Shown in pieces: positions 21,558 through 43,841 of a DNA stretch of 64,000 bases. Position 1 is the stretch's first letter; every line of letters starts with the position of its first letter. The notes under the pieces were generated by a model, which saw nothing but the letters and a program-made list of their open reading frames with translations, ran no database searches and was not told the origin of the DNA. The translations under genes and the position numbers were made by a program. The stretch is from Rhodospirillales bacterium (GTDB lineage: Bacteria > Pseudomonadota > Alphaproteobacteria > Acetobacterales > Acetobacteraceae). The stretch lies in NCBI GenBank assembly GCA_947460455.1, contig CANHKG010000002.1, positions 2,004 to 66,003 of the forward strand, written 5' to 3'.

Positions 21558-23057
21558 CTACGCTGCCTGATCGGCCAACACCTGCGCGATGGGGAACGGC
21601 GCATCGAAGCACAGGCCCAGTTCGACCTGGCCATCAGCGGCTGCGACATTGACCACCTTGAACGCGATGGAGCCCGCCGACCAACCGCCGGGCAGTGCGA
21701 ATTGGCCACGCATGCCGTTTCGGACAACGGACCCCTCTGGCACAATGAGCCGCGCGCCGGTCTCGGACAGGTCCTTCGTCATGACATCGCGGATGTCTGA
21801 CGTTTCCAGCGTGATCTGCCAGGGCACCTCCAGGAGTATGCGATCGCTGCGGCGGCGGTTGACCTCGCTCGCCGACGTTCGCACCGCCATCGACACGGAT
21901 TGCCTGAAGCTCAGGATCAATCCATCGGTGACATCGGCCACCTCGTTTGCCGCCATGTGAACATCAGCCGCGCATTCGAAGCTGCTGCCGACATCGCCGG
22001 TCATGGCCAGGATGCGCTCGGAGAGGGCGGCGGCGGCATCAACGGTGCGGCCCACATGGCCCGCGATGTCGGCCGTTGCCTGGCGCTGTTCGGCGACGGC
22101 CTCGGCGATGCCCTGGGCGATCTGGTCGATCGCGACGACGGCATTGGCCATCCGGTCGACCGCCTTCACCACATCCTGGTTGGAGACATCGATGGCGCCG
22201 ATGGTGCCGGCGATCGACTGGGCGGACTGCGTGGTCATCCGCGCCAGTTCCTTGACCTCGTTGGCGACCACGGCGAATCCGCGGCCGGCTTCGCCGGCGC
22301 GGGCCGCCTCGATCATGGCATTGAGGGCGAGCATGTTGGTCTGCCCGGCGATCGTCTGGATCAGGTCGGCCACCGACTGGATTGTGGTGATGTTGCCGGT
22401 CATCGCGGCGATGACCTCCCTGGCATCGGTGGTGGCGCGCATGGCGTTGCCGACCGCGCTCGTTGCCTGCTCCACCTGCGCCGAAATTTCGCGGATCGAT
22501 ATGTTCAGGTGATCGGCCGTTTTGCTGAGCTGGCTGGCACTTTCCACCGAATGGTCGGCCGCCTCGCTGGACATCACCGCATTCTGGCCGGAGCGCTCGG
22601 CCACGGCGGCAATCGAATCCGATATGGCCTTCACCCGCTGCACGCCGTCGCCCAGCTGCTGCACCTTCTCATCGACCTTGTGCTCGATCGCATCGGCCAT
22701 GGCTTGCATCGATCGGATGCGTCGTGCCTCTGCCTCATTATCGAGTTCGGCGAGTTGCGCGCGCAAGGTGTTCGCTTCGATCTCCAGCGCCTGAATTCTG
22801 GCTTCGTGCACGGGCGGGCGGTGCGCGAGGCTTCCGCGGCGGGCGATCAGCAGCAGGGCAAGTGCGCCGAGGCCGGGAAGGGCGGACGCGGCCAGCACCA
22901 TCATCGCGCCATCGCCCCGGCTCGCAACGCCCCAGGACAGCGCGGCGGCCAGGACGCCCGCGCAGAAGGGAGCCGCGGCACCATCGATCAGGCGGGCAGA
23001 AAGCTGCCGTATCCGCTGGGTCCAAACCTGGTTGCCGTTTGACATGCTGGTCACCAT
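21558..23057 (-). CDS. Methyl-accepting chemotaxis protein with C-terminal PilZ domain (no periplasmic sensor or HAMP recognised)
   Basis: MCP hairpin tip ..[38 protein letters not shown].. C-terminal PilZ motifs RRRSDR and DLSETG. N-terminus has two closely spaced TM helices. Alternative starts at 23045 and 23090 (TTG). Confidence 0.85.
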
Positions 23058-23385
23058 TTGCCTCGTCCGCGTCAAATTGAGGAGCTGCAATTACAAAACG
23101 ATGAATTCCCAGAATCGTCGTTTTGGACCGTTGTTACGATTTGTTGTGCGTTGCGAGGCAACGATGGGGGCCCAGTGTTCTCTGCGCGGTATGGCGCGGA
23201 TGTCTGAACATCATGACAGGGAACAGAAATAAGTATAATTACTTAGGTATTTACTGTGTGATTGGCAATTCTGCCGCAAATTTCGCCATTGATTAAGCTC
23301 TTTGTCGAATTCTTCGCCCAGAGCAACGCCTCCCGGTCCCACCGACAGCCCGCCGGACCCGTCTCCGGCCCCGCCCGCCCATCGG

Positions 23386-25224
23386 ATGCGAGGAACCTTC
23401 AAGGTTATGACGATGCGAAACCTGACTGCAGCGCTTCGGAACCAGCCCCCGGCAGAACATGATTATGACTGGGCCCCCATCCAGATGCCGGGCACCATCC
23501 AGCCCTATGGCGCTCTGATCGTGGCGGATCCGCAGACGCGGCGGGTTCAGTTCGTCAGCGACAATGCCGGTGAGATGCTGGGCATCAAGGCGGCCGACCT
23601 GCTGGACAAGAGCTATCTCCAGCTGTGTGGCTCTGACCGGGAGCGGCGCTTCGTCAGCGACGCCATCATGCCGGACACGATCCTGTTCCCCAACCCGGTG
23701 CGGCTTACCATCAACGGCAAGCCTTTCGATGCGGTGTTCCACGCCGAGGGCGGCGCCCATCTGATCCAGCTGGAACCGGCCGATCCGGACGCGCTTTCCT
23801 ATGACGAGATGTCGCTGCGCGCGACCGCCGAGCTGTTCGATCCGCCGACCGTGGAGGAGCTGAACCAGCGCGCCGTGCGGATGATCCGCGAGGTGACGGG
23901 CTTTGACCGCGTGATGCTCTATCGGTTCGACAGCCGCTACAATGGCCAGGTGATCGCCGAAGCCGGACGGCCCGATATCGGGTCTTTTCTTGGGCTGTTC
24001 TTTCCTTCCAGCGACATCGGGGCGCGTGCGCGCAATCTGTATTTGGAGAATTTCACCCGATACATCCCGGATATCGGCGCTGCACCGGTCTCCCTGAGCG
24101 GGATCTATCCCGGTGGCGGCCATGCCGACTCCGCCCACCCCGTGGACATGTCCCACGCCAATCTGCGCAGCGTGGTGCCCTGCCATGTGACCTATCTGCG
24201 TAATATCGGTGTTCAGGCCTCGATGTCGTTCAGCATCAACGTGGACAACCGGCTCTGGGGATTGTTCGCCTGCCACCACTATGAGCCGAAGACGGTCTCC
24301 TTCGAGAAGCGGGTGGTCTGCGAGCAAGCGGCGATGATGTTCATCTTCCGGCTGGCGACCATGACCTCGACCGCCGCCCGCTATGCGCGGCGCCAGGAGG
24401 GCCTGGCCCGCCTGACCACCAGCATTACCGTTGGCGCCGCCTTGCGCCGCCGCCTGGCCGGGCTGGCGCAGGGCTGGGCGGGCGATCCGGCCGCGGACAC
24501 GGCAGAGGCGCTGATCGCCCGGGCCATCGAGGCGGTTGAGGCGGAGACCAGCCTGCTGCTGCCCACCGACCCCTCGCAGCTGCCGGCAAATGCGCCGGTG
24601 ACCGGCAACCAGAAGATCCTGCTGGACCTGGTGGAGGCCGATAGTGCCGCCATCGTGCATCACGGGCGTGTTACCCGCATCGGCGAAGCGCCGTCGGCGA
24701 TGGCGATCTATGCCGTTGCCTCGATGTTCGGGCGCGAGTTGCCGGACCTGCAGAACGCTGCGCCGCATGTCTACGCGACCGACGGGCTGAGCGCCGTTGT
24801 GGCGGCCGCCGACGACATCAAGGATCGCGCGGCCGGGATCATGGCGGCGGCGCTGTCGCTGGAATCGCCAAGCTACATCATCTGGTTCCGGCGCGAGCAG
24901 ATCGTCCATGCGACCTGGGCCGGCAACCCCGCCGCCGATGCCATGTCGGCCGGCAGTGAGGGGCTGAATCCCCGCGCCTCGTTCGAGGCCTGGAAGCAGG
25001 ACATCCGCAACCTTTCCCGCCCGTGGGAGATGGAGGATGTGGTGGTGGCGGACGAACTCGCCGCGGTGCTGCGCAGCGTGGCGGCGCCGGATGGTGCGGC
25101 GCGGCCGGCGAAGCCGGAGCTGCAGCGCCCCATCGTGCCCCCGGCACCGCCGCGGCCCGCCGCCCCGCCGCCGGCGGCGCCGGCGGGCTCCGATCGCAAG
25201 GTCATCCGGATCGGCCATCGCTGA
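23386..25224 (+). CDS. Phytochrome photosensory core (PAS-GAF-PHY) with GAF-domain Cys, no output domain, Pro/Ala-rich tail (Phy1)
   Basis: ..APIQMPGTIQPYGALIV.., ..FPSSDIGARARNLY.., ..LRSVVPCHVTYLRNIGVQASMSFSI..LWGLFACHHY.., PHY tongue ..ATWAGNP.. and ..PRASFEAWK.. The start is uncertain (ATG 23386, 23407 or 23413, or TTG 23302). Confidence 0.85.
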   Translation: MRGTFKVMTMRNLTAALRNQPPAEHDYDWAPIQMPGTIQPYGALIVADPQTRRVQFVSDNAGEMLGIKAADLLDKSYLQLCGSDRERRFVSDAIMPDTILFPNPVRLTINGKPFDAVFHAEGGAHLIQLEPADPDALSYDEMSLRATAELFDPPTVEELNQRAVRMIREVTGFDRVMLYRFDSRYNGQVIAEAGRPDIGSFLGLFFPSSDIGARARNLYLENFTRYIPDIGAAPVSLSGIYPGGGHADSAHPVDMSHANLRSVVPCHVTYLRNIGVQASMSFSINVDNRLWGLFACHHYEPKTVSFEKRVVCEQAAMMFIFRLATMTSTAARYARRQEGLARLTTSITVGAALRRRLAGLAQGWAGDPAADTAEALIARAIEAVEAETSLLLPTDPSQLPANAPVTGNQKILLDLVEADSAAIVHHGRVTRIGEAPSAMAIYAVASMFGRELPDLQNAAPHVYATDGLSAVVAAADDIKDRAAGIMAAALSLESPSYIIWFRREQIVHATWAGNPAADAMSAGSEGLNPRASFEAWKQDIRNLSRPWEMEDVVVADELAAVLRSVAAPDGAARPAKPELQRPIVPPAPPRPAAPPPAAPAGSDRKVIRIGHR

Positions 25225-25290: not shown

Positions 25291-25602
25291 ATGAGCGATT
25301 TTGAAGTCAGCCTCACCGCCACCGATCTCGCGTCGATCCTGGCCACCAAGGGCACCCTGGACAGCAAGGTTGGCCAGGTTTTCAAGAGCAAGAGCGACAA
25401 GGCTCTGGAAATGGAGCCGAAGAACATCAACGTGGACTTCCAGAAGCTGGCGGTTCTGGATGCTTCGGCGGCCGGCATGCTGATGTTCTTCAACTACGCT
25501 GCCAAGACCAAGGGCAAGCAGATCAGCATCACCAATGCCAGCCCGGCGGTCCAGCAGGTGCTCAACCGCGCCAATCTCGGCAAGCTCCTGACGATCCGAT
25601 GA
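25291..25602 (+). CDS. Single-domain STAS protein (anti-sigma-factor-antagonist-like)
   Basis: 103 aa. ..NINVDFQKLAVLDASAAGMLMFFNYAAKTKGKQISITNASPAVQQVLNRANLGKLLTI.. matches the STAS/SpoIIAA C-terminal pattern. AGGAA RBS 6 nt upstream. Confidence 0.7.
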   Translation: MSDFEVSLTATDLASILATKGTLDSKVGQVFKSKSDKALEMEPKNINVDFQKLAVLDASAAGMLMFFNYAAKTKGKQISITNASPAVQQVLNRANLGKLLTIR

Positions 25603-25645: not shown

Positions 25646-26284
25646 ATGGCCCCCCTGATGTCTGAACATCACTCCCGCGTGACCCATTTGCGCACCCATA
25701 CGCGCGCCGCGCACAAGAGCATCGAGACCGTTCCCGCACTGGCCCGGCTGTTGGCGCCGGATCTGGGCCGCGGCGAATACGCCGATGTTCTGCTGGCGAT
25801 GCAGGCCTTCCACGCCGCGGCCGAGCCCGATATCGCCCTGGCGCTGGAGGGGTTGCCGGCTGCCCAATCCCTGCTCGACGGTCGCCGCCTCCGGGCCCTG
25901 TCGGACGACCTTGCCTTTCTCGGCACGGCACCGTGGCCGGCGAGCCCGGCACCCCTCGCCTTGGCGAACCGGGCGGAGGCGATTGGCGCACTCTACGTGA
26001 TCGAGGGGGCCAGCCTCGGCGGGCGGGTGATTGCCCGGCACATTGCCGACAGCCTGGACCTGGCGCCAGGCGCGGGGGCGAGCTTCTACGGTGGATTGTC
26101 GGCCGATGCGGCCCGCGAGCGCTGGGGCCGGCTCAGCGCCGTGCTGGAGGACCCGGCGATCGAGATCGATCTGCACGACCTCGCCCACGGCGCCTGCAAG
26201 ACCTTTGAAAGCCTGGAGCGGTGGATGCGGCGCGTGGCCGTCGCCGAAGCGCCGCACACCCTGGCCGTTTCAGCGGCCGCTTGA
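25646..26284 (+). CDS. Heme oxygenase (biliverdin-producing, BphO/HmuO-like)
   Basis: ..LRTHTRAAHKSIE.. (proximal His region), ..DDLAFLG.., ..GALYVIEGASLGGRVIAR.. ATG 25658 is an alternative start. Confidence 0.8.
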   Translation: MAPLMSEHHSRVTHLRTHTRAAHKSIETVPALARLLAPDLGRGEYADVLLAMQAFHAAAEPDIALALEGLPAAQSLLDGRRLRALSDDLAFLGTAPWPASPAPLALANRAEAIGALYVIEGASLGGRVIARHIADSLDLAPGAGASFYGGLSADAARERWGRLSAVLEDPAIEIDLHDLAHGACKTFESLERWMRRVAVAEAPHTLAVSAAA

Positions 26285-26316: not shown

Positions 26317-27840
26317 ATGCTCGATAAGATGGTCGCTGGCCTGGAAAATCCCTACGCGAACCTGCGCGCGCCGGGCCAGGTCCAAAGCTTCGGTGCCATG
26401 CTGGCACTGCATCCGACGACGCTGCGCGTGCTCAACGCCAGCCAGAATGTCGCGGCGGAACTTGGTGTTGGCCATGCGGACATTCTCGGCAAGCCGTTGT
26501 TCGACCTGCTGGAAGGCGGCGAGGCGATCGCCGAGATCAAGGACGCGCTGCAGCAGGACCAGCCGGTGTTCAACAACCCGATCCTGGCCTCGATCGGTGG
26601 GCAGCGCTTCGATCTGTCGCTGCATTGCCATGACGGGCTGGTGATTGCGGAGTTCGAACGCCTGGCCCCCGGCGCGGCCACGCGGGCCGACATGGACCGG
26701 CTGAGCGACGACGCCATCATGGGGATGATGGTTCCCGGCACCGAGGAGGAGCTGCTCGCCGCCGGCCCCGAGGCCATTCGCAGGGCGACCGGCTTCGATC
26801 GGGTGCTGCTCTATCGCTTCGACGAGGCGTTCCGCGGCCAGGTGGTGGGCGAGGCGCGCCGCACGGGCGTGGAGAGCTTCATGGGGCTGTTCTTTCCCGA
26901 AAGCGACATCGGCGCCCCCGCCCGTGATCTCTACACGCAGAACTTCTCCCGCTACATTCCGCATATCGGCGCGCCCACGGCCAAGATCGAACCGGCCGAC
27001 AACCCGCTGACCAACAAGCCCATCGATCTCTCGCATTCCGTGCTGCGGGCGGTGGCGCCCTGCCACGTCGCCTATCTCGCGAACATGGGCGTGACCGCTT
27101 CGATGTCGTTCTCGATCGTGTCGGAAGGCCGGCTGTGGGGGTTGTTCGCCTGCCATCACTACAGCCCGAGCAATCTCTCCTTCACGCAACGGATGATCTG
27201 CGAGCAGATCGCGATGATGTTCGTGGCCAAGCTGCAGGAAGTGGTCAATCCGCTGGCGCTGGAGGAGGAGATGGAGCAGCGGCGCACGAAGCTGCTTGCC
27301 TCCTCGCCGCTGTTCCGGGGCAATCCGCTGAAGCAGAGCTGGAGCGAGGAGAACGAGCAGGACCTCGTCAGGCTCGTCAATGCCGGTGGCGTTGCCCTCT
27401 ACATCGATGGCCAGGTCGGTGAGATCGGCACCTGCCCGGACCTGAGCGACCTGCACGACTTCATCGAGCATTCGCCGCGGGACTTCGATGCGCTGCTGCG
27501 CCGCTACGACGAGCAGGGGCTGTTCTACACGAGCAGCATCGCCTCCGTCCTGCCGTTCGGCGCGAAGATGCGCGAGCAGGGCAGCGGCGTGATGATCGTT
27601 CCGCTGTCTGCCGAACGGCGCGAGTTCCTGTTGTGGTTCCGCCCCGAACTCGTGGTGACTGCCACCTGGGCCGGCAATCCGTCTGAGACCAAGATCAAGG
27701 ACCTGAACGCCACGTTCAGCCCGCGCCGGTCGTTCGCCGCCTGGAAGGAAGACATCCGCGATCTCTCCGCCCCCTGGACCGCGGCCGAGATCGCCAATGC
27801 CAAGGCCGTTCGCGACCACGTGATGGCCCTGATCAACTGA
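26317..27840 (+). CDS. Phytochrome photosensory core (PAS-GAF-PHY) with GAF-domain Cys, no output domain (Phy2)
   Basis: ..APGQVQSFGAMLAL.., ..FPESDIGAPARDLY.., ..LRAVAPCHVAYLANMGVTASMSFSI..LWGLFACHHY.., ..ATWAGNP.., ..PRRSFAAWK.. Ends 25 aa after the last PHY motif. Confidence 0.85.
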   Translation: MLDKMVAGLENPYANLRAPGQVQSFGAMLALHPTTLRVLNASQNVAAELGVGHADILGKPLFDLLEGGEAIAEIKDALQQDQPVFNNPILASIGGQRFDLSLHCHDGLVIAEFERLAPGAATRADMDRLSDDAIMGMMVPGTEEELLAAGPEAIRRATGFDRVLLYRFDEAFRGQVVGEARRTGVESFMGLFFPESDIGAPARDLYTQNFSRYIPHIGAPTAKIEPADNPLTNKPIDLSHSVLRAVAPCHVAYLANMGVTASMSFSIVSEGRLWGLFACHHYSPSNLSFTQRMICEQIAMMFVAKLQEVVNPLALEEEMEQRRTKLLASSPLFRGNPLKQSWSEENEQDLVRLVNAGGVALYIDGQVGEIGTCPDLSDLHDFIEHSPRDFDALLRRYDEQGLFYTSSIASVLPFGAKMREQGSGVMIVPLSAERREFLLWFRPELVVTATWAGNPSETKIKDLNATFSPRRSFAAWKEDIRDLSAPWTAAEIANAKAVRDHVMALIN

Positions 27841-27900: not shown

Positions 27901-28233
27901 ATGAAAATTCGCAATCTCAAGACGGCTTCCGAAACCGGTGACACCACGGTCCAGGCCAGCGTCGCGGAACCGTCACCCGCGATGGCCGACCAGCAGGTGG
28001 TTGCCACCGTGATCGCGGATGGCCCCGTGGACGACGCTGCGCATGACCGCCAGGCGCTTGAGATCGCCCTGCTGCGCGTGCGGGTGCAGCACCTGGAGCT
28101 GGTGGTTGAGACCGCGCGCAGCCTGCTCAACGCCAACCAGGACCGGCTGCTGCGGCGGCTGCACGAGATTCCCCGGGAGATGGCGTCGCTGAGCGCGCAG
28201 CTTCAGCGGGTTGATCCCCAGGCCAGCTGGTGA
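27901..28233 (+). CDS. Small hypothetical coiled-coil protein
   Basis: 110 aa. The C-terminal half is heptad-like (..LEIALLRVRVQHLELVVETARSLLNANQDRLLRRLHEI..). Sits in the operon between Phy2 and paralog A. The start is uncertain (TTG 27877 is possible). Confidence 0.45.
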   Translation: MKIRNLKTASETGDTTVQASVAEPSPAMADQQVVATVIADGPVDDAAHDRQALEIALLRVRVQHLELVVETARSLLNANQDRLLRRLHEIPREMASLSAQLQRVDPQASW

Positions 28234-28274: not shown

Positions 28275-28814
28275 ATGAACGCATATCCCGGCCCGGCCGA
28301 CGCGCTCGCCGCCAGCGGCGACACCACCTCCTCCGCCGGCGACGAAAGCGCGACCTGCTTCAAGCTGAGGCGCACCGGCCACAAGGCCGTTCGTTTCGAC
28401 GGCTGGCAGCTCGTGGAGGCCTTCGGTGGCGGCCAGGGGAAGGATGTGTGGCACGACCTCAACCTGTATCGCACCGGGCAGGACCGGATCGTGGTTGAGC
28501 TCATCGCCCGGACCACCCTGCCGGACCAGCAGGATCTGCACCGCGTCAACACGTTCGAGACACTGACCGATGCGGCGGCCTGGCTGGAGGCGTATCGTGC
28601 GACTGACGATGCGCCGATCCCGGCCTCCCTCAGCCAGGCCAATACCGCCTTGCCCTGGGCGATGCTGCAGGCCGTTCATCTGCGCCACAACATCGATCGC
28701 ATCGATGCCGATTACCGGACGATGCTGAGTGAGGTGTTCATGGCGCTCGACCTCTCCGACCCGGCCGAGGCGGCCTTGTATACGGCAGCCGCTGCCTCGC
28801 CGCGGGAAGGGTGA
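28275..28814 (+). CDS. Unknown-family protein, paralog A of a four-member family in this window
   Basis: ATG 28275 follows GGGAGGA. ..CFKLRRTGHKAVRFDGWQLVE..DVWHDLNLYRTGQDRIVVELI..FETLTDAAAWLEAY..YRTMLSEVF.. aligns with the ORFs at 30790-32335. Confidence 0.7.
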   Translation: MNAYPGPADALAASGDTTSSAGDESATCFKLRRTGHKAVRFDGWQLVEAFGGGQGKDVWHDLNLYRTGQDRIVVELIARTTLPDQQDLHRVNTFETLTDAAAWLEAYRATDDAPIPASLSQANTALPWAMLQAVHLRHNIDRIDADYRTMLSEVFMALDLSDPAEAALYTAAAASPREG

Positions 28815-28821
28815 TCCCCTG

Positions 28822-29511
28822 ATGAATGCCCTGCCGATGATGCAACGCGCCGCGGTGCAGTTTGCCGATCGCCTGCGGCTGGTGCCGGGTGCGATCGAGC
28901 GCCACGTTCCGGACTACGCGCCTTCGACGGAGACGCTGCAGTGGACGAATGTCTTGCTGGAATCAGGCAGGTTTCGTCATGGCCATGTCGAGACGTTCGT
29001 TGTGGCGGACAGGCTTTCCGTGCTGCATGTGTGCCTGTTCCCGCATCTTGACGATCCCGGCCCGATCTTCGGTTTCGACATGATCGCGGGCCCGGCCAGG
29101 GTGACCGGCATCTTCCTCGACCTGTCGCCGACCACGGGGCAGGCGGACGGCCCGGGCCTGGGTGAGGTTCGCGCGGCGCAGGGCGTTGGAGCGTTCGAGC
29201 ATCCTCGCGTGCTGCCGGAGTGGGGCGATATCTTCTCAGCCGATTGCCTGGCGATCCGTCCGGCTGATCTGGATGAGGTCGCGCGAGCCATCGGGTTTGC
29301 GCAGGCCGCGCTGGATGCCTGCCTGGCCGGGACGCGCGTACGCGCCCCCCACCGCAGCGCCGAGATCAGCGCTGGCCAGGCGCGCTACATCGCAGCGCAG
29401 CGGCGCAACGAACACACCTTCCGGATGCTGGCTGGATTGATCGGACCCGACAAGGCCCGCGGCTTCATTGATCAGGTGCTGTTCCCGGCTGTTCCTGAAC
29501 TGGCGATCTGA
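28822..29511 (+). CDS. pcyA: Ferredoxin-dependent bilin reductase, PcyA-like
   Basis: ..GRFRHGHVETF..LSVLHVCLFP..PIFGFDMIAGP..GIFLDLSPT.. aligns by eye with the PcyA core (..FRKLHLEIA..ILHCVMFP..PLFGCDIVAGP..DLSPT..), including the Glu/His/Asp positions. Confidence 0.75.
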   Translation: MNALPMMQRAAVQFADRLRLVPGAIERHVPDYAPSTETLQWTNVLLESGRFRHGHVETFVVADRLSVLHVCLFPHLDDPGPIFGFDMIAGPARVTGIFLDLSPTTGQADGPGLGEVRAAQGVGAFEHPRVLPEWGDIFSADCLAIRPADLDEVARAIGFAQAALDACLAGTRVRAPHRSAEISAGQARYIAAQRRNEHTFRMLAGLIGPDKARGFIDQVLFPAVPELAI

Positions 29512-30342: not shown

Positions 30343-30561
30343 CTAGGCTGCTGCCGCCACCGGATCGGTCGTGAGGCCGACGGCTTCGGCATAGCGCAGA
30401 TAGGTCTCCACCGATGCCACGACGACGCGGATCTCGATGGCAATCAGCTCGATGCCGACCAGCGCGATGCGGATGAACGCATCAACCACCACACCCTTAT
30501 CCAGGATGCGATCGATGACTTCGGCCAGGCTGCTCGAAGCAAGGCTTTTATTGATCGTCAT
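30343..30561 (-). CDS. gvpA: Gas vesicle major structural protein GvpA
   Basis: [63 protein letters not shown] is a near-canonical GvpA sequence. Start ATG 30561 lies 7 nt after GAAGGGA (an ATG at 30567 is too close to the RBS). Confidence 0.92.
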
Positions 30562-36288: not shown

Positions 36289-37316
36289 GCCGCATGCTCC
36301 ACAACCTGCCCCGCCACCGGCGCCAACTCGGGCAGAACAAGGCGGTAGCCGGCCTGCCGCACCAGGCTGCGCAAGGTCCTCGGCGCGGCCCGCAGCAGCG
36401 GGCGGAGCAGGCGATAGGCCTCGGTGATCTCGGTGAAGGCCTCGGTGGACGCCGGCTGGCCGGGGCGACGGTCTGGATGGGCGGACGCGGCGAGGGCCCG
36501 CCACTGGCGATGCAGCAGGGTGATATCCACCTTCTCCGGCAGGCCGAGCACGCGCCAGCTTCGGGCGATGTCCCCAGCCTCAACGCGGGTGAGCCGGACC
36601 GGGTGAAAGCTGACCGGCGGCATCGGCCCGCGCAGATCGGCACTGGCCCCCGCCACCTGGGCCGGCGGCAACTGGCCGAGCGCGGCCTCGATCAGGTTCT
36701 CCCGGCCGCGGGGGACCAGAACGGTGGTGGTGATCTCGGTCTCCCCGCCCGCAGTGGACCCTGGCGCGATGGCCAGGACATGGCGGCTGAGCGCCTGCAG
36801 CACGACGGCCGAGCGGGCGGCGTGCTCGGCGCGCAGCAGCGCCTGGACGGCCTGCGCCAACAGGGCCGGATCACCCTTCGCGGCGGCTTCCTGCAGGGTC
36901 TCGCGCTGCGTCGCCAGCACCGCCTCGGGCGGCCAGCTGATCACCAGATCCCATTGATGCACGGCCCCGAGCTGGGCGAGCCTGGCGCCCAGATCCTCCC
37001 AGGACAGCTCCAGCAGCGCGTCGATCGCGCTGGTTGGGCAGCAGGCAGCGCCTGGGTCCATCGGCAGGAACGGTCCGAACTGGCAGGCAATCTCCAGCCG
37101 GCGGTGCACCGCCTGCAGCCCGCTGAGCAGGGCCTTGCGGCCGCGGCGGGCAAGGGGCGTCGTCGGCTCATCCTGGATCAGGGCAGCGACCGTCGGGCCG
37201 TACACCGCGCGCAGCGACGGACCCGGCACGGCGGACATCGCCGCGCACAGGCCTTCGATATCCGCGAGGCCGGCAAAGCCCAACAGCCGCGTCGGTGCCA
37301 TGTTCACATCCGCCAT
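36285..37316 (-). CDS. GvpL/GvpF-like protein fused to a C-terminal J-domain
   Basis: The N-terminal 270 aa are GvpF/L-like (..HRRLEIACQFGPFLPM.., ..LRGPMPPVSF). The C-terminus ..WRVLGLPEKVDITLLHRQWRALAASAHPDRRPGQPASTEAFTEITEAYRLL.. matches a J-domain including HPD. AGGAGG RBS. Confidence 0.8.
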   Translation of the reverse strand: MADVNMAPTRLLGFAGLADIEGLCAAMSAVPGPSLRAVYGPTVAALIQDEPTTPLARRGRKALLSGLQAVHRRLEIACQFGPFLPMDPGAACCPTSAIDALLELSWEDLGARLAQLGAVHQWDLVISWPPEAVLATQRETLQEAAAKGDPALLAQAVQALLRAEHAARSAVVLQALSRHVLAIAPGSTAGGETEITTTVLVPRGRENLIEAALGQLPPAQVAGASADLRGPMPPVSFHPVRLTRVEAGDIARSWRVLGLPEKVDITLLHRQWRALAASAHPDRRPGQPASTEAFTEITEAYRLLRPLLRAAPRTLRSLVRQAGYRLVLPELAPVAGQVVEHAA

Positions 37317-39400
37317 GATCGTCCTCCTGAGTGTTCTTGCAGTGCCACATCGAAATCGGCCGGGGAGACCACCGGCTCCGCCGCTGCCGGATCGCGCGAG
37401 AGCGACGCGAGGGCTGCCAGGCGGCAAATGCCGGCGATATCTGCGCCCACGCAGCCTTCGGTGCGGGCCGCGAGGGCCGGGATGTCCACGCCCGCCGCCA
37501 GTGGCATCGGGCGGGTGTGGACCGCGAACAGGGCGGCGCGGCCGGCCTCGTCCGGCACCGGCATTTCCAGCACCAGATCGAACCGGCCGGGCCGCAGCAG
37601 GGCGGGGTCGATCAGGTCGGGGCGGTTGGTGGCGGCGAGCACGACGAGGCCGCCGGGTTGGGTGATGCCGTCCATCTCCGTCAGCAACTGGGCGACCATG
37701 CGTTCCACCGTGGCGCCGGCGCCACTGCCGCGGCGCCCGGCGATGGAATCGATCTCGTCGAAGAACACCACGCAGGGCTGCGCCATCCTGGCGCGGGCGA
37801 AAATCTCCCGCAGCGCCCGTTCGCTCGCCCCCTGCCATTCCGCCAGCAGCTCCGGGCCGCGCACCGAGATGAACCCCGCCTGCGCCGCACTTGCGAGTGC
37901 CCGGGCGAGCAGTGTTTTGCCGGTGCCCGGCCGGCCGTGCAGCAGCACGCCGCGCGGCGGCTTCACGCCGAGCCGGGCGAACCGGCTGGGCTCGGCCAGC
38001 GGCAGCTGCACCGCGCGGATCAGCGTGTCGCGCAGATGGTCGATGCCGGCGACCTCGGCCCAGCTGACATCCGGGATCTCGACGAATACCTCGCGCAGTG
38101 CCGTGGGCGTCACCTCGCGCAGCGCCGTCTCGAAGTCGCCTGCCTCCACCTGCAACGAGCCGAGGTCAGGCGTCCGTCCGGCCGCCATCGCGCCGTCGCG
38201 CCGCAGTGCAGCCATGCCGGCTTCCCGGCACAGGGCCGCCAGATCGGCGCCGACATGGCCATGCGTGGCGGTGGACAGCAGGGCGAGATCGACATCGCCG
38301 GCCAGCGGCATGCCGCGGGTGTGCACGGCCAGGATCTCCCGCCGCCCCTCCCGGTCTGGCGGATCGACGCGGATTTCGCGGTCGAACCGACCGGGGCGAC
38401 GCAGGGCGGGATCGATGCCGTCGGGCAGGTTGGTTGCCGCCAGCACCATCACCTCGCCGCGCTCGGCCAGCCCGTCCATCAAGGTCAGCAACTGGGCGAC
38501 GATCCGGCGTTCGACCTGCTTCTCGCTGGACAGCGCATCGCGCTTCTGGGCGATGGCGTCGATCTCGTCGATGAAGATGATCGAGGGTGCCTGCTTGCGG
38601 GCGGTCTCGAAGGTGGCGCGCAGCTGCTGTTCGGAGGCACCGTAGTATTTGTCGACGATCTCCGGCGCGTTGATGGTGATGAAGTGCGAGCCGGTCTCGG
38701 CCGCCACGGCGCGGGCGATCATGGTCTTGCCGGTGCCGGGGGGGCCGACCAGCAGCACGCCCTTCGGCGGCGCGATGCCGAGATGGGCGAACACCTCGCG
38801 GTTGCGCAGCGGCCATTCCACCACTTCGCGCACCCGCTGCACAACGCGGCCGAGGCCGCCGACATCCTCGTAGCGCGGGCCGGCGCCGGGTTCGCGGGCG
38901 GCTTCACGCGGGCGGACGCTGATCTCCACCGCGGTGGCCTCCGCCAGCACGCACGGACCGTCTGGTGCGATGGCGAGCACGCGCAGCTCGGCCTCGCGCC
39001 CGTTGGTCAGGGCCAGGCGAAACCGCTCGCCGAGGCAGAGCGGCACGCCCGCGAGACCGCGCTGCACCATCGCGGCGGTGATCCCCGCCGGCGCCTCAAT
39101 CCGCAGTCGCTCGGCCGCTTCCGGCGGCGCGTGGAGAGCAATCTGCGCCTGCCCGCCCACGACCAGGCCGGCATTCGCGCGCGTTGCCGTGTCGATGTGC
39201 AGCAGGCCCTGGCCGCGCAGGGCCGGGCGCTGCGGTAGGGCGCGCACGAAACTGGTGCTCTTCCCCGTTACCGCCAGCAGGGTGCCGGTGCTGCCGCCGA
39301 GCGCCTGCAGGGCCGCCGGGTCGATGCGTGCCACGCCGCGGCCGGCATCCTCGGCGGTGGCCTGGGCCACGGCGAGGCTGAGGGCGGGCTCAGGCCGCAT
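37304..39400 (-). CDS. CDC48/VCP-like double AAA+ ATPase
   Basis: 698 aa. Two Walker A boxes (GPPGTGKT, GRPGTGKT), two Walker B boxes (IIFIDEID, VVFFDEID) and an N-terminal CDC48-N-like region. Confidence 0.88.
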   Translation of the reverse strand: MRPEPALSLAVAQATAEDAGRGVARIDPAALQALGGSTGTLLAVTGKSTSFVRALPQRPALRGQGLLHIDTATRANAGLVVGGQAQIALHAPPEAAERLRIEAPAGITAAMVQRGLAGVPLCLGERFRLALTNGREAELRVLAIAPDGPCVLAEATAVEISVRPREAAREPGAGPRYEDVGGLGRVVQRVREVVEWPLRNREVFAHLGIAPPKGVLLVGPPGTGKTMIARAVAAETGSHFITINAPEIVDKYYGASEQQLRATFETARKQAPSIIFIDEIDAIAQKRDALSSEKQVERRIVAQLLTLMDGLAERGEVMVLAATNLPDGIDPALRRPGRFDREIRVDPPDREGRREILAVHTRGMPLAGDVDLALLSTATHGHVGADLAALCREAGMAALRRDGAMAAGRTPDLGSLQVEAGDFETALREVTPTALREVFVEIPDVSWAEVAGIDHLRDTLIRAVQLPLAEPSRFARLGVKPPRGVLLHGRPGTGKTLLARALASAAQAGFISVRGPELLAEWQGASERALREIFARARMAQPCVVFFDEIDSIAGRRGSGAGATVERMVAQLLTEMDGITQPGGLVVLAATNRPDLIDPALLRPGRFDLVLEMPVPDEAGRAALFAVHTRPMPLAAGVDIPALAARTEGCVGADIAGICRLAALASLSRDPAAAEPVVSPADFDVALQEHSGGRSWRM

Positions 39401-39665
39401 CCGCCGGCTCCTCGGCTGCCGTGCCGGCCTGGATGGCGCGCATTTCCATGAGCTCCTCCAGCAAGCGGGATTCCTCGGCCTCGAACGCCTCCTCGGTGAT
39501 CTCACCGTTGTCGAGCTGGCGTTCCAGCAGCCGCAGCGCCTGCTCGATGCGGGCGGGATCCAGCATCTTCTGCAGTGCCTGCTCGGCCACCTGGCGGGCG
39601 ATCCATTGCAGCGCGCCCAGCGGGCCGGCCACGGGCAAGGCGATGAGGGAGCCGAGGATGCTCAT
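39390..39665 (-). CDS. gvpG: Gas vesicle protein GvpG
   Basis: 91 aa. ..PVAGPLGALQWIARQVAEQA.. then ..LERQLDNGEITEEAFEAEESRLLEEL.. is typical GvpG. ATGA overlap with gvpF. Confidence 0.85.
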   Translation of the reverse strand: MSILGSLIALPVAGPLGALQWIARQVAEQALQKMLDPARIEQALRLLERQLDNGEITEEAFEAEESRLLEELMEMRAIQAGTAAEEPADAA

Positions 39666-40435
39666 GCCTGCGCCGCCCCCATCTGCCAATCGGCGCGCAG
39701 CTGGACGAAGTTGTAGGGCGGCACCGGGCCGACATAGCGGAACACCATGCGGCCTTCCCGGCTCTCTGACAGGCTGCGCATCCGCGCGTCGAACTGCGGT
39801 TCGTTCGCGCGGGACACCAGGAAGGCGCGGTTGAGCACCATGTCGTCGTCCAGCGTCTTGAGCTCGGCTTCGCGGTCGGCCAGGGGAGCGAGCTCGGCCA
39901 GGATCGCCTCGGCATCGGCGGTGCGGCGCTTGGCCAGCGCCTGCTCGATCTGGCGACCGAGCTCCACCCGCTCGTAGTAGGTTTCGCTGGCCGGGCGGTC
40001 GCGCAGGCGATTGCGCAGCCGGGCCAGATTGGCGTCGGAGGCGATGATCTCCGCGAACACCACGCCTTCGCGCCAGCTTGCCTTCACGCCAAGTTCCACC
40101 TTGCCGTCGATCGCGGCCATCGCCGCGGTGAAGGCGGCCTGGTTGGTGGTGATGCAGGCATTCAGCGCCGCCTCGCCAGGCGCCACCGTGCCGAAGCGGA
40201 CGGGCAGCACCGTCGCCTGCGTCATCACGCGCTCCAGCAGGGCGGTGTGCGCCAGCAGGTTGCGGCGGGTCTGCGCGACCTCGCCCGGCTCGACGGCGCT
40301 GACCAGCGCCTGCAGGGCACCTTCGCCGCGCAGGGTCACGGCCGCACCGCCGACGCCGGTGCCCCAGGCGGTGGGGTCGAGACGCTGGCCGGCGGCGACG
40401 AGGCCATAGACGTAGAAGCGTTCCGGGGTGGTCAT
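39662..40435 (-). CDS. gvpF: Gas vesicle assembly protein GvpF
   Basis: ..RFYVYGLV.., ..NLLAHTALLERVMTQATVLPVRFGTV.., ..MVLNRAFLV.., ..YVGPVPPYNF.. ATGA overlap with the Hsp20 gene. Confidence 0.88.
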   Translation of the reverse strand: MTTPERFYVYGLVAAGQRLDPTAWGTGVGGAAVTLRGEGALQALVSAVEPGEVAQTRRNLLAHTALLERVMTQATVLPVRFGTVAPGEAALNACITTNQAAFTAAMAAIDGKVELGVKASWREGVVFAEIIASDANLARLRNRLRDRPASETYYERVELGRQIEQALAKRRTADAEAILAELAPLADREAELKTLDDDMVLNRAFLVSRANEPQFDARMRSLSESREGRMVFRYVGPVPPYNFVQLRADWQMGAAQA

Positions 40436-41028
40436 GCGCGCGTGCTCCGGGCCAGTCGCACTTCGAGGATGCCGTTCTGGAAGCTGGTCTGCAGGCTTTC
40501 GGGCGCAACCGTGGCCGGGAGCACCAGCGACTTGCGATAGGCCCGTGCACCGGCGGCCTCGATCAGCAGCGACAGCCCGTCCAACGTGCAGCGAACCGTG
40601 GCGGGGTCGGCGCCGGGCAGTTCGGCGACGACGATGATGGCGTCCGCCTCCTCGAAGATGTCGGTGATCGGCTGGCGGGAGGCCGGTTGGCTCGCCTCCG
40701 GCGATGGCTTGGCGGTGCTGTCCGGCACATCGCCGAAGCGCTCGGCAGAGACACCGTCCGCGCCCATGCGCAGGGTGTAGCCGAACACCATCCGGGCATC
40801 CTTGCCGCCGACCGAGAAGCCCTGCTCCGTACGGCCGTCGCCGCTTGCGCTTTTGGCGGCGTCGGCGAGTTTTTCCACCATGGATTGCAATGCCTCGACG
40901 ATGCCGCCGACGCCGGCGAAACCGCTGGTGTCCTTCATCGCGGCGGGGTCGGAGGGTTGCTCGGCGCGGTCGCGTTCCGAAAGCCGGCGCGCCACGCTGA
41001 AGCCGTGTCGGGGGGGGCGAAGTGCCAT
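40432..41028 (-). CDS. Hsp20/alpha-crystallin-domain protein (GvpH-like)
   Basis: C-terminal ACD ..DIFEEADAIIVVAELPGADPATVRCTLDGLSLLIEA..YRKSLVLPATV..SFQNGILEVRL.. AGGAGG RBS. Confidence 0.8.
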   Translation of the reverse strand: MALRPPRHGFSVARRLSERDRAEQPSDPAAMKDTSGFAGVGGIVEALQSMVEKLADAAKSASGDGRTEQGFSVGGKDARMVFGYTLRMGADGVSAERFGDVPDSTAKPSPEASQPASRQPITDIFEEADAIIVVAELPGADPATVRCTLDGLSLLIEAAGARAYRKSLVLPATVAPESLQTSFQNGILEVRLARSTRA

Positions 41029-41037
41029 GCCGACCTC

Positions 41038-41340
41038 CTATTGCCGCGCCGTGGCGGCGATGGTGTGCTCGAGCTTGGCGATCCGTTCGAGCAGGGCGGC
41101 ATTGTCGGCCTGCAGCTTGGCGGAGCCGGCGCCGTTCAAGGCGGCATCGTTCTCCCACCAGCGGATGCCCATTTCGAGGGCGCGATCGACCGAGGCCACC
41201 ACCAGGCGGATGCGCACGGTGAGCAGTTCGACGCCCACCAGGCTCACCGAAATGTCGCCCGCGACGACGATCCCCTTGTCGAGGATGCGCTCCAGGATAT
41301 CCGCCAGGCCGGAGCCGCCGACGCTGTGTTGCAAGGCCAT
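41038..41340 (-). CDS. gvpJ: Gas vesicle protein GvpJ (GvpA family)
   Basis: ..GLADILERILDKGIVVAGDISVSLVGVELLTVRIRLVVASVDRALEMG.. plus a C-terminal extension. Confidence 0.88.
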   Translation of the reverse strand: MALQHSVGGSGLADILERILDKGIVVAGDISVSLVGVELLTVRIRLVVASVDRALEMGIRWWENDAALNGAGSAKLQADNAALLERIAKLEHTIAATARQ

Positions 41341-41393: not shown

Positions 41394-41648
41394 TCAGCCC
41401 TGGCCGCGAATGAAGCGGCCGGTGCGGTGCCAGCCGGTGACCTGGCCATCATCGGCGAGCGTCACCTCGTAGCTCGCCAGCAGGTCTTGCGTGCGGGGGA
41501 TGGAGCGGTGTTCCAGCATGTCCATGCTGACCGTCCAGCCGCCTTCCGACCGGTCCAGCCGGCTGATCGCGTCTGGGCTGAGGCCGGTGATGGCGGTCAT
41601 CTGCCGTTTGGCCTCTTCAACCAGATTCACCAGCGCGTTCGTGCTCAT
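41394..41648 (-). CDS. gvpO: Gas vesicle protein GvpO
   Basis: 84 aa. ..AKRQMTAITGLSPDAISRLDRSEGGWTVSMDMLE..YEVTLADDGQVTGWHRTGRFIRGQ matches the GvpO pattern. Confidence 0.75.
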   Translation of the reverse strand: MSTNALVNLVEEAKRQMTAITGLSPDAISRLDRSEGGWTVSMDMLEHRSIPRTQDLLASYEVTLADDGQVTGWHRTGRFIRGQG

Positions 41649-41666: not shown

Positions 41667-42119
41667 TCAGCCGCGCCACTTGCCGGGTTGCGGCCGCAGG
41701 CCGGTCCGGCTTTGCAGGGCCGCCCATTGCCGCCCGGCCTGCGGTGCCGGCAGGGGAAGGTCGGCGGCGGCCACACGCGACGGGGCGGTGCGCCCGGTGC
41801 GCGCCACTGCCGGCGCCGGTGCCGGCGGCTGGATCGGTTCGGGCGGCGCTTCCAGCCCGGGGCGCAGGCTTGGGTCGAGCGCGTCTATCTGCTCCACCAG
41901 CCAGGACAGGCGGCGCTGGAGCTTGGCGAAGCTGCTTGTGGCCGCCTGCAATTGCTGCTCCAGCAGCTCGATCTGATGGGACTGGCGCGCGCGCCGCTGC
42001 GCCAGCAGGGCGAACTCCGCCGCGAGGCTTTCGATTTGCCGCTGCCGGGTGTCCTTGCGGGAGGTGCGCGTGCCAGGCGGGCGGCTGGCCATGCTGCGCG
42101 CGACGGGGCGGGGCATCAT
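41667..42119 (-). CDS. Hypothetical coiled-coil / Pro-rich protein within the gvp operon
   Basis: 150 aa. Basic N-terminus, heptad region ..QIESLAAEFALLAQRRARQSHQIELLEQQLQAATSSFAKLQRRLSWLVEQIDAL.., Pro-rich tail. The start overlaps the gvpN stop. Confidence 0.55.
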   Translation of the reverse strand: MMPRPVARSMASRPPGTRTSRKDTRQRQIESLAAEFALLAQRRARQSHQIELLEQQLQAATSSFAKLQRRLSWLVEQIDALDPSLRPGLEAPPEPIQPPAPAPAVARTGRTAPSRVAAADLPLPAPQAGRQWAALQSRTGLRPQPGKWRG

Positions 42120-43117
42120 GCCGCGACTCCTTGCCGGCTGCGGGCGAAGGCGGGGTCGGCGCCGCAGAAGTGATCGATCAACTGGATCAGCAATTGGCGC
42201 TGCTGCGGATCGGGCAGCCCGTCCCCGTCCGGCTTCAGCTTGCTGCCCAGCACATCGAGGCAGAGTTGAACAAAGCGCGGCTCGTCGGAGGCCACGCGCA
42301 GCTTCATCTCGCCGGCGATGCGCGCGATCATGATGGAGGCGCGCAGCGTTGGCCGATGCGCGTAGGAGCGCGAGGCGCGGAAGTCGCGCACCGTGTCGAC
42401 GATTCGCCCGGCATCGCGCGGCGTGAGGCCGGAGCGGGCGGCGACGATGGCAATTTCCGTGTCACGATCGAAGCTTTCCAGATCGAGCGTAATCATCCGG
42501 TCGGTCAGCGCGTCCTGCGCCAGATTGGTGCCGACGTGATCGGTGGGGTTGGAGGTGAAGATGGCGCGGAACTGCGGGTGCACCGGCAGGTAGCTCTCGC
42601 CCCGTCCGGCCTTGGCCAGCACCAGCAGCCGCTCTTCCAGCACTGTCAGCAGCACGTTGTTGGCACTCGGCGGGGCACGGTTGAACTCGTCGTAGACGAG
42701 GGTGCCGCCCTCCATGCAGGCCACGGTCAGCGCCCGGTCGAGCCAGACGGCATCGGTGTGGCTCTCTACCTTCGTGACGCTGCTGATGTAGCGGTCCACC
42801 ACGCGCTTGGTACGCTTGATCTCGTCACCGCCGACAAGCCGGCGGGTGTCGAAGCTGGCATCGCCGACCAGCAGCACGATCGGCCGCTTGAGCTGCTCTG
42901 CCACCCGCAACGCCAGGCTGGTCTTGCCGCTGCCGGCCGGGCCGCGCAGATGCAGGGGGTAGCCGGCGCTGAGATAGCTCAGGGCGCGGCGCTCCAGATC
43001 GGCAATCGCCTCCGAGGTTGCGATCTCTGGATTCTGTACGAGATGCCGCAGGGCCGGGTCTGTTTCGTCGGCCGGGATGGCGGGCGGGCGATCCGCCGGG
43101 GTGGTGAGCCGCGCCAT
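42116..43117 (-). CDS. gvpN: Gas vesicle AAA+ ATPase GvpN (CbbQ/NirQ/NorQ/GvpN family)
   Basis: 333 aa. Walker A LRGPAGSGKTSLA, Walker B ..GTLVYDEFNRA.. Typical GvpN length and position. Confidence 0.88.
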   Translation of the reverse strand: MARLTTPADRPPAIPADETDPALRHLVQNPEIATSEAIADLERRALSYLSAGYPLHLRGPAGSGKTSLALRVAEQLKRPIVLLVGDASFDTRRLVGGDEIKRTKRVVDRYISSVTKVESHTDAVWLDRALTVACMEGGTLVYDEFNRAPPSANNVLLTVLEERLLVLAKAGRGESYLPVHPQFRAIFTSNPTDHVGTNLAQDALTDRMITLDLESFDRDTEIAIVAARSGLTPRDAGRIVDTVRDFRASRSYAHRPTLRASIMIARIAGEMKLRVASDEPRFVQLCLDVLGSKLKPDGDGLPDPQQRQLLIQLIDHFCGADPAFARSRQGVAA

Positions 43118-43121
43118 GCTG

Positions 43122-43841
43122 TCAGCCTCCGTTCATGTCGATGGAGAAGCCGCGCTTCCAGGCGGAGCGCAGGGATGTGAGGCTGGCGGGGTCATCCGCC
43201 CAACCGAGAAACAGGTCGCGCGCCGCCCGCAACTGCGGACCCGCGCTCGACAGAAACGCCTCGCCCAGAACGCCACCGGATGCGCCCAAGCGTTCGGCCG
43301 CAAAGCCGGGGCGCTGCGTGGCATCGAGGGAGGCGGCGACGAGGTCGCACGTTCGCTGCGCATCGGCGCTGGGATGCACGCCGGTGGCGAGATAGCCGCA
43401 GGACGCCCCGAAATCCGTTGCCAGCGCGTCCCCGATGCCGAGTTCCCCCGCCATCGCCTGGCACATCGCAGCCAGGGTGCGGGAGACACACGCAGGGTCA
43501 TGCGGCGCGGGGGCGGCGATGGCGACGCCATCGCGCCAGCACAGGAACGGGATCTGGCTCTGGCCGAAGCGTGGCTGCAATCCGAAGGCGAAGACATCGA
43601 GCGGCAGCGGCCAGTGCCGTGCGCCATCCACAAGGACGCTGAGAACGGATTGCCACAAGGCCTGGAACGCACCCAGCGCACCGCGGAGGTCCGGCTGAAG
43701 CACGATGTCCGGGCGGCTGCCGTCTCGCAGCAGGATGCGACAGGGGAGCCCCACGAGATCGCGAAGGTCGGAAGGAAGCGTCAGCTCAATGCTTCCGCTG
43801 CCCTTCCCGGATGTTCTGATCTGTCGAGTGCCGAGCAACAT
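43122..43841 (-). CDS. Hypothetical protein with AbrB/SpoVT-like N-terminus; first gene of the gvp operon
   Basis: 239 aa. ..GKGSGSIELTLPSDLRDLVGLPCRILLRDG.. resembles a swapped-hairpin AbrB-type motif. The remainder is unrecognised. Stops 4 nt before the gvpN start. Confidence 0.5.
   Translation of the reverse strand: MLLGTRQIRTSGKGSGSIELTLPSDLRDLVGLPCRILLRDGSRPDIVLQPDLRGALGAFQALWQSVLSVLVDGARHWPLPLDVFAFGLQPRFGQSQIPFLCWRDGVAIAAPAPHDPACVSRTLAAMCQAMAGELGIGDALATDFGASCGYLATGVHPSADAQRTCDLVAASLDATQRPGFAAERLGASGGVLGEAFLSSAGPQLRAARDLFLGWADDPASLTSLRSAWKRGFSIDMNGG

Follow-up and report, generated by a model that had tools for sequence, protein, structure and literature searches.

The idea of light-controlled buoyancy is about twenty years old, and photoreceptor genes neighbouring gas-vesicle (gvp) genes were noted in about 2004 to 2007 in two cultured alphaproteobacteria. 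In Bradyrhizobium sp. ORS278, BRADO1262 encodes a phycocyanobilin (PCB)-binding bacteriophytochrome, within a horizontally acquired island that also carries genes for PCB synthesis and gas vesicles (PMC3899966); the island of this protein, BrBphP3, is credited to Jaubert et al. 2007, as cited in PMC3899966, PMC13446030, and PMC10151467. Clusters of gvp genes close to a gene for photoactive yellow protein (PYP) are found in Rhodobacter capsulatus SB1003 and Loktanella sp. SE-62 (Kyndt et al. 2004, as cited in PMC3646047). Here we describe a locus of this kind in a 64,000-nucleotide stretch of DNA from a freshwater Rhodospirillales bacterium of the family Acetobacteraceae (GenBank assembly GCA_947460455.1, contig CANHKG010000002.1, positions 2,004 to 66,003), referred to as the window throughout. 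It carries a seven-gene operon for bilin synthesis and two phytochromes next to a gas-vesicle operon, and we consider it rather probable that this photosensory cassette makes gas-vesicle production light-dependent.

The ORS278 region was annotated as locus L037 (L numbers denote the loci compared in this work). Its first part holds an integrase, a multi-PAS-MCP, a GerE regulator, a phytochrome (620 aa, no output domain), STAS (103 aa), heme oxygenase (HO), PcyA, and an aminotransferase. The gvp part follows with GvpN, a 91-aa gene, GvpO, GvpJ, a 175-aa Hsp20-like gene, GvpF, GvpG, and CDC48, and the locus ends with GvpL-DnaJ, GvpF, GvpJ, a 217-aa gene, and GvpK. The PAS-MCP gene is located two genes upstream of the phytochrome gene. 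A first-pass annotation of the window, made from its letters without database searches, had pointed to the ORS278 precedent, and the precedent is real.

Linkage of photosensory and gas-vesicle genes

Genes in the window were called from codon-position GC and checked against gene calls on metagenome contigs identical to it, with domains assigned by Pfam; raw lists of open reading frames were noisy because of the 69% G+C of the window. All genes named in the first-pass annotation were found where it had placed them, as judged by Pfam and the matching metagenome gene calls. Positions 21558 to 43841 consist of three units: a gene for an MCP-PilZ receptor, a seven-gene operon on the plus strand (23302-29511), and a 17-gene gvp operon of 13.05 kb on the minus strand (from 43841 to 30790), followed by gvpA and u213. 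Most neighbours within each operon overlap or sit less than 75 nt apart, and the photosensory operon and the gvpA unit converge. The GC fraction, 0.69 on average in the window, drops to 0.48-0.54 in three spacers (22950-23400, 30450-30750, and 43800-44100), in agreement with the earlier claim that the three units start at AT-rich spacers. That annotation had also joined gvpA to the 13-kb operon as one unit; both are present, and gvpA is located downstream of the operon, with an AT-rich spacer of its own. The photosensory operon is composed as follows.

23302..25224, plus strand: Phy1, PAS2-GAF-PHY with no output domain (Pfam; PDB alignment; GAF Cys294-His)
25291..25602, plus strand: STAS, 103 aa, single domain (Pfam STAS_2, 1.8e-10)
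25646..26284, plus strand: HO (Pfam Heme_oxygenase, 1.5e-10)
26317..27840, plus strand: Phy2, 507 aa, PAS2-GAF-PHY only (Pfam; PDB alignment; GAF Cys249-His)
27901..28233, plus strand: u110, 110 aa (gene call; conserved C-terminal helical region of about 55 aa in 23 aligned orthologs)
28275..28814, plus strand: X179, a member of the X family within the photosensory operon
28822..29511, plus strand: PcyA, an AX-clade phycocyanobilin:ferredoxin oxidoreductase (Pfam Fe_bilin_red, 7.7e-26)

Related loci were collected by scans with an X179 alignment, which yielded five loci in metagenome-assembled genomes (Acetobacteraceae, Rhodopila, and Rhodospirillales) and 27 metagenome loci. Further contexts were obtained by exact-protein look-ups, and the loci were compared by tblastn with every window protein. 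The genome scan relied on narrow peptide patterns and returned only five species, which under-samples taxonomic breadth. The gene order Phy1-STAS-HO-Phy2-u110-X179-PcyA was kept in about 20 loci, down to 40-60% identity, and gvp genes adjoined the seven-gene operon in about 14 of the 17 informative loci (Acetobacteraceae and Rhodospirillales), in three arrangements.

Arrangement (a): PcyA convergent on u213-gvpA (window, L010, L019)
Arrangement (b): Phy1 preceded on its own strand by the entire gvp cluster, gvpA, and u213 (L006, L007, L009, L040, L041)
Arrangement (c): u239-gvpN operon and Phy1 divergent; X genes, gvpA, and u213 downstream of PcyA (L021, L025, L027, L030, L032; partly L024)

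The first-pass annotation had named adjacency confined to this one genome as grounds for abandoning the light-buoyancy idea; the linkage is conserved. The pairing of phytochrome and gvp genes is thus widespread in freshwater and peat Acetobacteraceae and Rhodospirillales, survives rearrangement, and comes with interchangeable versions of the sensor. A related cassette is present in a cultured organism, Falsiroseomonas selenitidurans (GCA_012103215.1, JAAVNE010000053.1; L039), where the order is Phy-STAS-MCP (307 aa)-HO-PcyA, and where a u239-like gene, cut by the contig end, and a CTGCTAG repeat are found upstream of the cassette. This organism could serve as an experimental host.

The gas-vesicle genes and their flanking features are listed below in the order of transcription.

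43122..43841, minus strand: u239, head of the gvp operon (N-terminal 50 aa highly conserved; no family assigned)
42116..43117, minus strand: GvpN, AAA_5 ATPase (Pfam, 3.1e-18; 59-68% identical in related clusters)
41667..42119, minus strand: 150-aa coiled-coil protein between GvpN and GvpO (small genes in the same slot in ORS278 and L047)
41394..41648, minus strand: GvpO (Pfam, 7.1e-21)
41038..41340, minus strand: GvpJ-like protein (Pfam Gas_vesicle, 4.6e-16)
40432..40995, minus strand: Hsp20-like GvpH (Pfam GvpH, 2.7e-4; NCBIfam Hsp20, 1e-25, under the curated cut-off)
39662..40435, minus strand: GvpF/L (Pfam, 4.2e-64)
39390..39665, minus strand: GvpG (Pfam, 2.2e-17)
37304..39400, minus strand: CDC48-type double AAA+ ATPase (Pfam CDC48_N plus two AAA; 50% identity with its ORS278 counterpart)
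36285..37316, minus strand: GvpL/F with a C-terminal J domain (Pfam GvpL_GvpF, 5.4e-13, and DnaJ, 4.8e-9; same fusion in ORS278)
35482..36288, minus strand: GvpF/L (Pfam, 3e-35)
35274..35489, minus strand: GvpJ/M-like protein (Pfam Gas_vesicle domain, 3.8e-13)
34969..35277, minus strand: GvpK (Pfam, 6.1e-30)
32407..34956, minus strand: u849, two hydrophobic segments near the N terminus and a long helical stretch rich in Ala (position after gvpK)
31859..32335, minus strand: X158 (blastp against X179, E 4e-10; hhalign probability 99.5%)
31353..31859, minus strand: X168, the most divergent X paralog (hhalign probability 92-97.5%; X-profile match, 1.3e-16)
30790..31356, minus strand: X188 (blastp against X179, E 2e-13; hhalign probability 100%)
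30562..30789: AT-rich spacer of 228 nt upstream of gvpA (GC 0.49; partly conserved block in eight aligned upstream regions)
30343..30561, minus strand: gvpA, major shell protein, 72 aa (Pfam Gas_vesicle, 4.1e-15)
29584..30225, minus strand: u213, Pro/Ala-rich, conserved C-terminal domain (no family match)

Eight genes have been reported as essential in Halobacterium, namely those for GvpA and for GvpF, G, J, K, L, M, and O (as cited in PMC3646047). To this set correspond, in the window, GvpA, two J/M-class proteins, three GvpF/L-family proteins, GvpG, GvpK, and GvpO, where J and M, and likewise F and L, are not separable by sequence alone; GvpN is present in addition. Homologs of all eight were therefore found, and the earlier description of the gas-vesicle operon as complete stands. 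GvpA is 88-99% identical in related loci, and u213 follows gvpA in every locus showing that region. The u239 protein is 45-62% identical in six other loci, Falsiroseomonas included. Reading it by eye as an AbrB-like DNA binder gained no support from Pfam searches at E up to 10 with three N-terminal fragments, or from a six-sequence profile run against PDB sequences.

Upstream of u239 a short direct repeat was found.

43863..43881, minus strand: CTGCTAG-N5-GTGCTAG, a candidate operator 22 nt ahead of the ATG of u239
Copies in other loci: L021 4817-4835, L025 4786-4804, L027 1128-1146, L030 2197-2215, L032 4648-4666, L039 441-459

It is the sole zero-mismatch match to CTGCTAG-N5-(C/G)TGCTAG in the window. 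The repeat occurred once per locus, upstream of u239, in all seven of the loci inspected, including that of Falsiroseomonas, and nowhere else in 348 kb of related sequence. Within arrangement (c) it is placed in the intergenic region shared by u239 and Phy1. We take it as a candidate operator for the gvp genes that u239 heads. The region upstream of gvpA also contains a conserved block, with a T-rich TTTAYC-like element followed some 20-30 nt later by GGC(A/G)GCGATCG; it was seen in the window (30562-30789), L006, L007, L009, L019, L040, and L041, is weaker than the u239 repeat, and is most divergent in the window copy. Scans of 21000-45000 for sigma-70-type promoters and intrinsic terminators gave results at chance level.

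Very large Ala-rich helical proteins (849-1362 aa) follow gvpK in several loci. In the window this is u849 (32407-34956, minus strand), and proteins of 881-1362 aa occupy the same slot in L041 (35-2680), L042 (4403-8491), and L048 (12630-16049). No family match was obtained for u849 beyond faint apolipoprotein-like hits. The remaining genes of the window (TctABC, Mrp antiporter, amidases, acyl-CoA enzymes, and IclR regulators) belong to ordinary transport and metabolism; no photosynthesis gene, Rfam family, or tRNA was detected in the 64 kb.

Predicted chromophore synthesis and the two phytochromes

We examined the bilin reductase for residues that determine the product. E57, H69, and D86 of the window PcyA aligned to E76, H88, and D105 of the Synechocystis enzyme (phmmer alignment, PDB 2D1E), and the window protein is 48% identical to ORS278 PcyA. 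Glu76 is specific to PcyA enzymes and is needed for 18-vinyl reduction, and PcyA of the alphaproteobacterial 'AX' clade produces PCB (Rockwell et al., PMC10151467). A pre-PcyA identity of the reductase was ruled out, as the Glu76 equivalent is present. HO and AX-clade PcyA share an operon with the phytochromes, and we infer, with good support, that PCB would be synthesised and attached to both of them. As a side observation, a predicted protein of 262 aa (P0253), encoded on a metagenome contig of 32 kb, combines the Pfam domains PAS_2 and Fe_bilin_red and is either a phytochrome-PcyA fusion or an artefact of gene calling.

Phy1 and Phy2 align over their full photosensory module to solved phytochromes, and the alignments stop at the PHY domain. 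The 'PCH' motif of Cph1-type proteins is present in both, and the GAF Cys column is invariant when Phy1, Phy2, and the ORS278 and Falsiroseomonas phytochromes are aligned. The Cys-His pair is retained in nearly all Phy1 and Phy2 orthologs. In biliverdin-binding bacteriophytochromes the chromophore is attached at a Cys ahead of the PAS domain, and no such Cys was found in either Phy1 or Phy2. Together with the Glu/His/Asp triad of PcyA, these features agree with the first-pass description of two tandem phytochromes suited to a phycocyanobilin-type chromophore. In both proteins DIG replaces the DIP motif, and the PRxSF tongue motif is intact. In Phy1, GAF and PHY are separated by an insertion of about 80 aa, and the start codon is uncertain, lying between 23302 and about 23413 (perhaps near 23407-23413). 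Orthologs of Phy2 form about 100 clusters, all of about 507 aa and without an output domain.

The first-pass annotation had further called the sensor a red/orange one, and this colour call found no support, given the canonical Cys-His of the window phytochromes versus the Cys-Asp of the ORS278 protein. Since the pocket residues differ from those of ORS278, no colour can be assigned to Phy1 or Phy2 from ORS278 data, and the spectral properties of the two types may differ; those reported for the ORS278 protein are atypical. Additional phytochrome genes were seen in two of the related loci. L040 (11355-14456, minus strand) has an extra 1033-aa Phy-HisKA-HATPase-receiver-Hpt hybrid that is convergent on PcyA, and L025 (14266-15738, plus strand) has a third phytochrome after u213.

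Candidate partner proteins and possible routes to the gas vesicles

One protein family is common to the photosensory operon and the gvp operon. X179, X158, X168, and X188 proved paralogous in pairwise comparisons (blastp E 2e-13 to 8e-3; hhalign probability 92-100%), so the four-member family noticed earlier was recovered by both methods. u110, u213, and u239 are not members. The X proteins, of about 160-180 aa, gave no match in Pfam or NCBIfam, and neither did u110. Homologs of X179 form 48 clusters, nearly all metagenomic, and a search of 1.84 billion representative proteins with an X profile returned 817 members at E <= 1e-3.

Seven contexts of X-family genes were examined. A hidden Markov model (HMM) scan detected three to four X genes per cluster. 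Genes for distant members of the family stand directly beside PYP genes in L047 (8578-13623), L045 (10001-10910), and L046 (9160-10486). The order in L047 is a pCL-like ligase, then X, PYP, X, and X, then a TAL-like lyase, followed by gvpA, a 172-aa gene, and GvpN through CDC48. The 124-aa PAS protein of L047 retains the chromophore Cys and has a match to Halorhodospira PYP (E 1e-42), and the L047 gvp genes are colinear with those of the window (GvpA 78%, GvpN 59%, and CDC48 54% identical). L045 and L046 likewise pair an X gene with a PYP homolog. In L042 and L048, X genes lie beside gvpK, the large helical protein, AMP-binding enzymes, and MCPs, and in L044 the X gene is in an unrelated context. 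The type of photoreceptor is thus swapped, a phytochrome cassette for a PYP cassette, within one lineage of gvp clusters, and X proteins are common to both.

Adjacency of cassette and gvp cluster would also be seen if the two merely travelled together on a mobile island with no regulatory link. In ORS278 the region is described as a horizontally acquired island (PMC3899966), and an integrase is found 4 kb upstream; the cassette can, moreover, occur without gvp neighbours. We regard hitch-hiking of this kind as improbable, because the window encodes no integrase, tRNA, or other mobility gene, the linkage persists through three different rearrangements, the unrelated photoreceptor PYP takes the same slot in homologous clusters, and the X family is divided between the photosensory operon, with one paralog, and the gvp cluster, with the others.

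The structure of X179 was modelled with AlphaFold. A first model from 22 close orthologs was poor (pLDDT 58), and an alignment of 122 sequences improved it to pLDDT 86.9 and pTM 0.75, with a predicted fold of a five-stranded sheet, a short helix, and a long helix. Foldseek searches of the PDB with both models returned nothing below E 0.08, that is, no significant fold match. The best local resemblance was to a PUR-alpha repeat (E 0.1, target-normalised TM 0.52, not significant), which is only a lead towards possible nucleic-acid binding. The bilin-biosynthesis-associated globins (BBAGs) of pre-PcyA clusters have an all-helical fold of globin or phycobiliprotein type; that X proteins are bilin binders of this kind was ruled out by the predicted sheet-and-helix fold and the lack of any globin among the fold matches. 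We raise as a tentative and rather doubtful proposal that the X family is the missing partner linking output-less, unrelated photoreceptors (bilin phytochromes and PYP) to gas-vesicle formation. If so, there would be one conserved relay for interchangeable light sensors, and the output of PYP in bacteria with X and PYP genes would be control of buoyancy.

STAS was the most conserved gene of the cassette, with 73-98% identity across the seven-gene loci as against 56-95% for the phytochromes; homologs in ORS278 and Falsiroseomonas are at 33-35% identity. Such conservation suggests several binding partners. Every version of the cassette pairs STAS with Phy1, and u110 and X179 always accompany Phy2. 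Single-domain STAS proteins are classically antagonists of anti-sigma factors, so the phytochromes and STAS might instead act by partner switching on a sigma factor with a broad light or stress regulon (pigments, photosystem), of which gvp would not be a specific target. Ser59, aligned by eye with the phospho-serine position of SpoIIAA, is kept in the seven-gene loci and would fit such a route; it is Ala in ORS278 and Falsiroseomonas, however, the window encodes no anti-sigma kinase, PP2C phosphatase, or sigma factor, and the conserved neighbours are gvp genes rather than pigment genes. A sigma-factor route therefore appears improbable to us.

On the other side of the photosensory operon, divergent from it, lies the gene for a membrane-anchored chemoreceptor.

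21558..23090, minus strand: MCP-PilZ, 510 aa, membrane-anchored, C-terminal PilZ (Pfam MCPsignal, 9.7e-24, and PilZ, 5e-7)
23091..23301: AT-rich divergent spacer between MCP-PilZ and Phy1 (GC 0.54)

Both domains named in the first-pass annotation were detected, along with two N-terminal hydrophobic segments. The translation of the PilZ domain contains the motifs expected for cyclic di-GMP (c-di-GMP) binding, RxxxR at R413-R417 and DxSxxG at D440-G445. The same neighbour is present in L005 (87% identical), and MCP-domain genes of varied architecture adjoin the cassette in eight loci, as TM-MCP-PilZ in the window and L005, as multi-PAS-MCP in L019, L041, and ORS278, and as TM-MCP in L025 and L026; in Falsiroseomonas the MCP gene is inside the operon. 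A link of MCP-PilZ to light or gas vesicles is suggested by gene position alone.

These genes raise the possibility that Phy and STAS modulate the neighbouring MCP and, through it, CheA, giving phototaxis or a Che-like output, with gvp genes as neighbours only through a shared role in vertical positioning. The varied MCP genes beside or inside the cassette, the MCPs beside X genes in L042 and L048, and the intact c-di-GMP motifs of PilZ all speak for it. Alphaproteobacterial genomes hold many MCP genes, however, and a certain amount of adjacency would arise by chance; in addition, the 64-kb window contains no cheA, cheW, cheY, or flagellar gene, and in the majority of loci the cassette has gvp genes on both flanks and no MCP gene beside it. 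An output through MCPs is compatible with light-dependent gas-vesicle production. As an explanation in its place we judge it unlikely; hitch-hiking and the sigma-factor route are each less likely still.

On the basis of these observations, we propose the following scheme for light-dependent gas-vesicle production. HO and AX-clade PcyA would produce PCB, which would attach to the GAF Cys of the sensor-only Phy1 and Phy2. With no enzymatic output, the two phytochromes must signal by binding partners, which could be STAS on the one hand and u110 with X179 on the other. The output would be control of the u239-gvpN operon, possibly through the CTGCTAG repeat, and/or of gvpA through its separate promoter, with the three X paralogs that lie ahead of gvpA, next to the gvp operon, as possible participants. 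Cell buoyancy would then depend on the colour or intensity of light, and the nearby MCP proteins might provide a second, motility-related output. Here we infer the identity of the chromophore, every protein-protein step, and the effect on gvp expression.

Several points weigh against this scheme. No report of light-responsive gas vesicles in ORS278 or R. capsulatus was found, and the literature searched yielded no signalling route from output-less sensors to vesicle genes. A DNA-binding domain was detected in none of the cassette genes, and the X179 model, as noted, has no significant structural match. The HMM scan detected no X gene in the parts covered of the ORS278 island (up to gvpK) and of the Falsiroseomonas locus; given the former, X proteins cannot be a universal relay, and the seven X-family contexts are a small, hand-picked sample. 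The recurrent MCP genes point to a different output. A 106-kb contig carries the seven-gene operon with no gvp gene within 5 kb upstream or 9 kb downstream, and L014 and L008 have no gvp genes on the visible side. The loci are also mutually related, so the counts do not represent independent events.

The analysis supplies concrete candidates, namely STAS, u110, the X family, u239, and the CTGCTAG repeat, by which an old hypothesis becomes testable. If it is true, it would explain light-set depth in non-cyanobacterial plankton and would offer compact light switches for the engineered gas vesicles that serve as acoustic reporters.

Comparison with known systems

The MCP-PilZ neighbour resembles MCPs with a C-terminal PilZ domain, of which Tlp1 of Azospirillum brasilense is an example: an MCP signalling domain comes first, and PilZ, with RxxxR and DxSxxG, comes after it. 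The window protein differs in having no periplasmic sensor domain, only a short loop between its hydrophobic segments. The window phytochromes share with Cph1 (PDB 2VEA) the knotted PAS2-GAF-PHY module, the GAF Cys-His, and the intact PRxSF, and they differ in lacking a histidine-kinase output, in having DIG for DIP, and in the GAF-PHY insertion of Phy1 (about 80 aa).

The PYP-gvp type of R. capsulatus and Loktanella, which the metagenomic loci L045 and L047 resemble, has in common with the window a homologous, colinear gvp cluster that holds a photoreceptor gene together with genes for making its chromophore, and, in the metagenomic examples, X genes. The sensor, in contrast, is a blue-light PAS protein with p-coumaric acid, accompanied by TAL and pCL instead of bilin phytochromes with HO and PcyA, and there is no STAS.

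A further close system is the ORS278 island. Both loci encode a sensor-only PAS2-GAF-PHY protein with a GAF Cys followed by a 103-aa STAS, together with HO and AX-clade PcyA, an adjoining colinear cluster running from gvpN through cdc48 to gvpK, and an MCP-domain gene nearby. The window differs in having Phy2, u110, and X179 between HO and PcyA, where ORS278 has none of these, and in its four X paralogs and its u239 with the CTGCTAG repeat. It lacks the aminotransferase, the GerE regulator, and the integrase, and the island hallmark is absent, with neither integrase nor tRNA in 64 kb and flanks taken up by genes of ordinary metabolism and transport. Phy1 and the ORS278 phytochrome share only 32% identity. 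The phytochromes of ORS278 (L037 6866-8728) and Falsiroseomonas (L039 714-2558) have Cys-Asp and an N-terminal Cys, whereas those of the window have Cys-His and no N-terminal Cys.

The first-pass annotation had listed features that it took to lie outside this precedent. Phy2, the X family, and the PilZ fusion do so; STAS, the MCP neighbour, CDC48, the J-domain fusion, and the Hsp20-like protein are all encoded in the ORS278 island. The linkage of phytochrome and gvp genes, STAS, the chaperone-like set, the MCP neighbour, and the PYP-gvp link were already known, and Phy2, u110, the X family, the PilZ fusion, and u239 go beyond ORS278; the two-phytochrome cassette also belongs to another bacterial family. 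What is new in the present locus and its relatives is Phy2 with u110 and X179, the CTGCTAG repeat, and an X family that spans phytochrome and PYP clusters.

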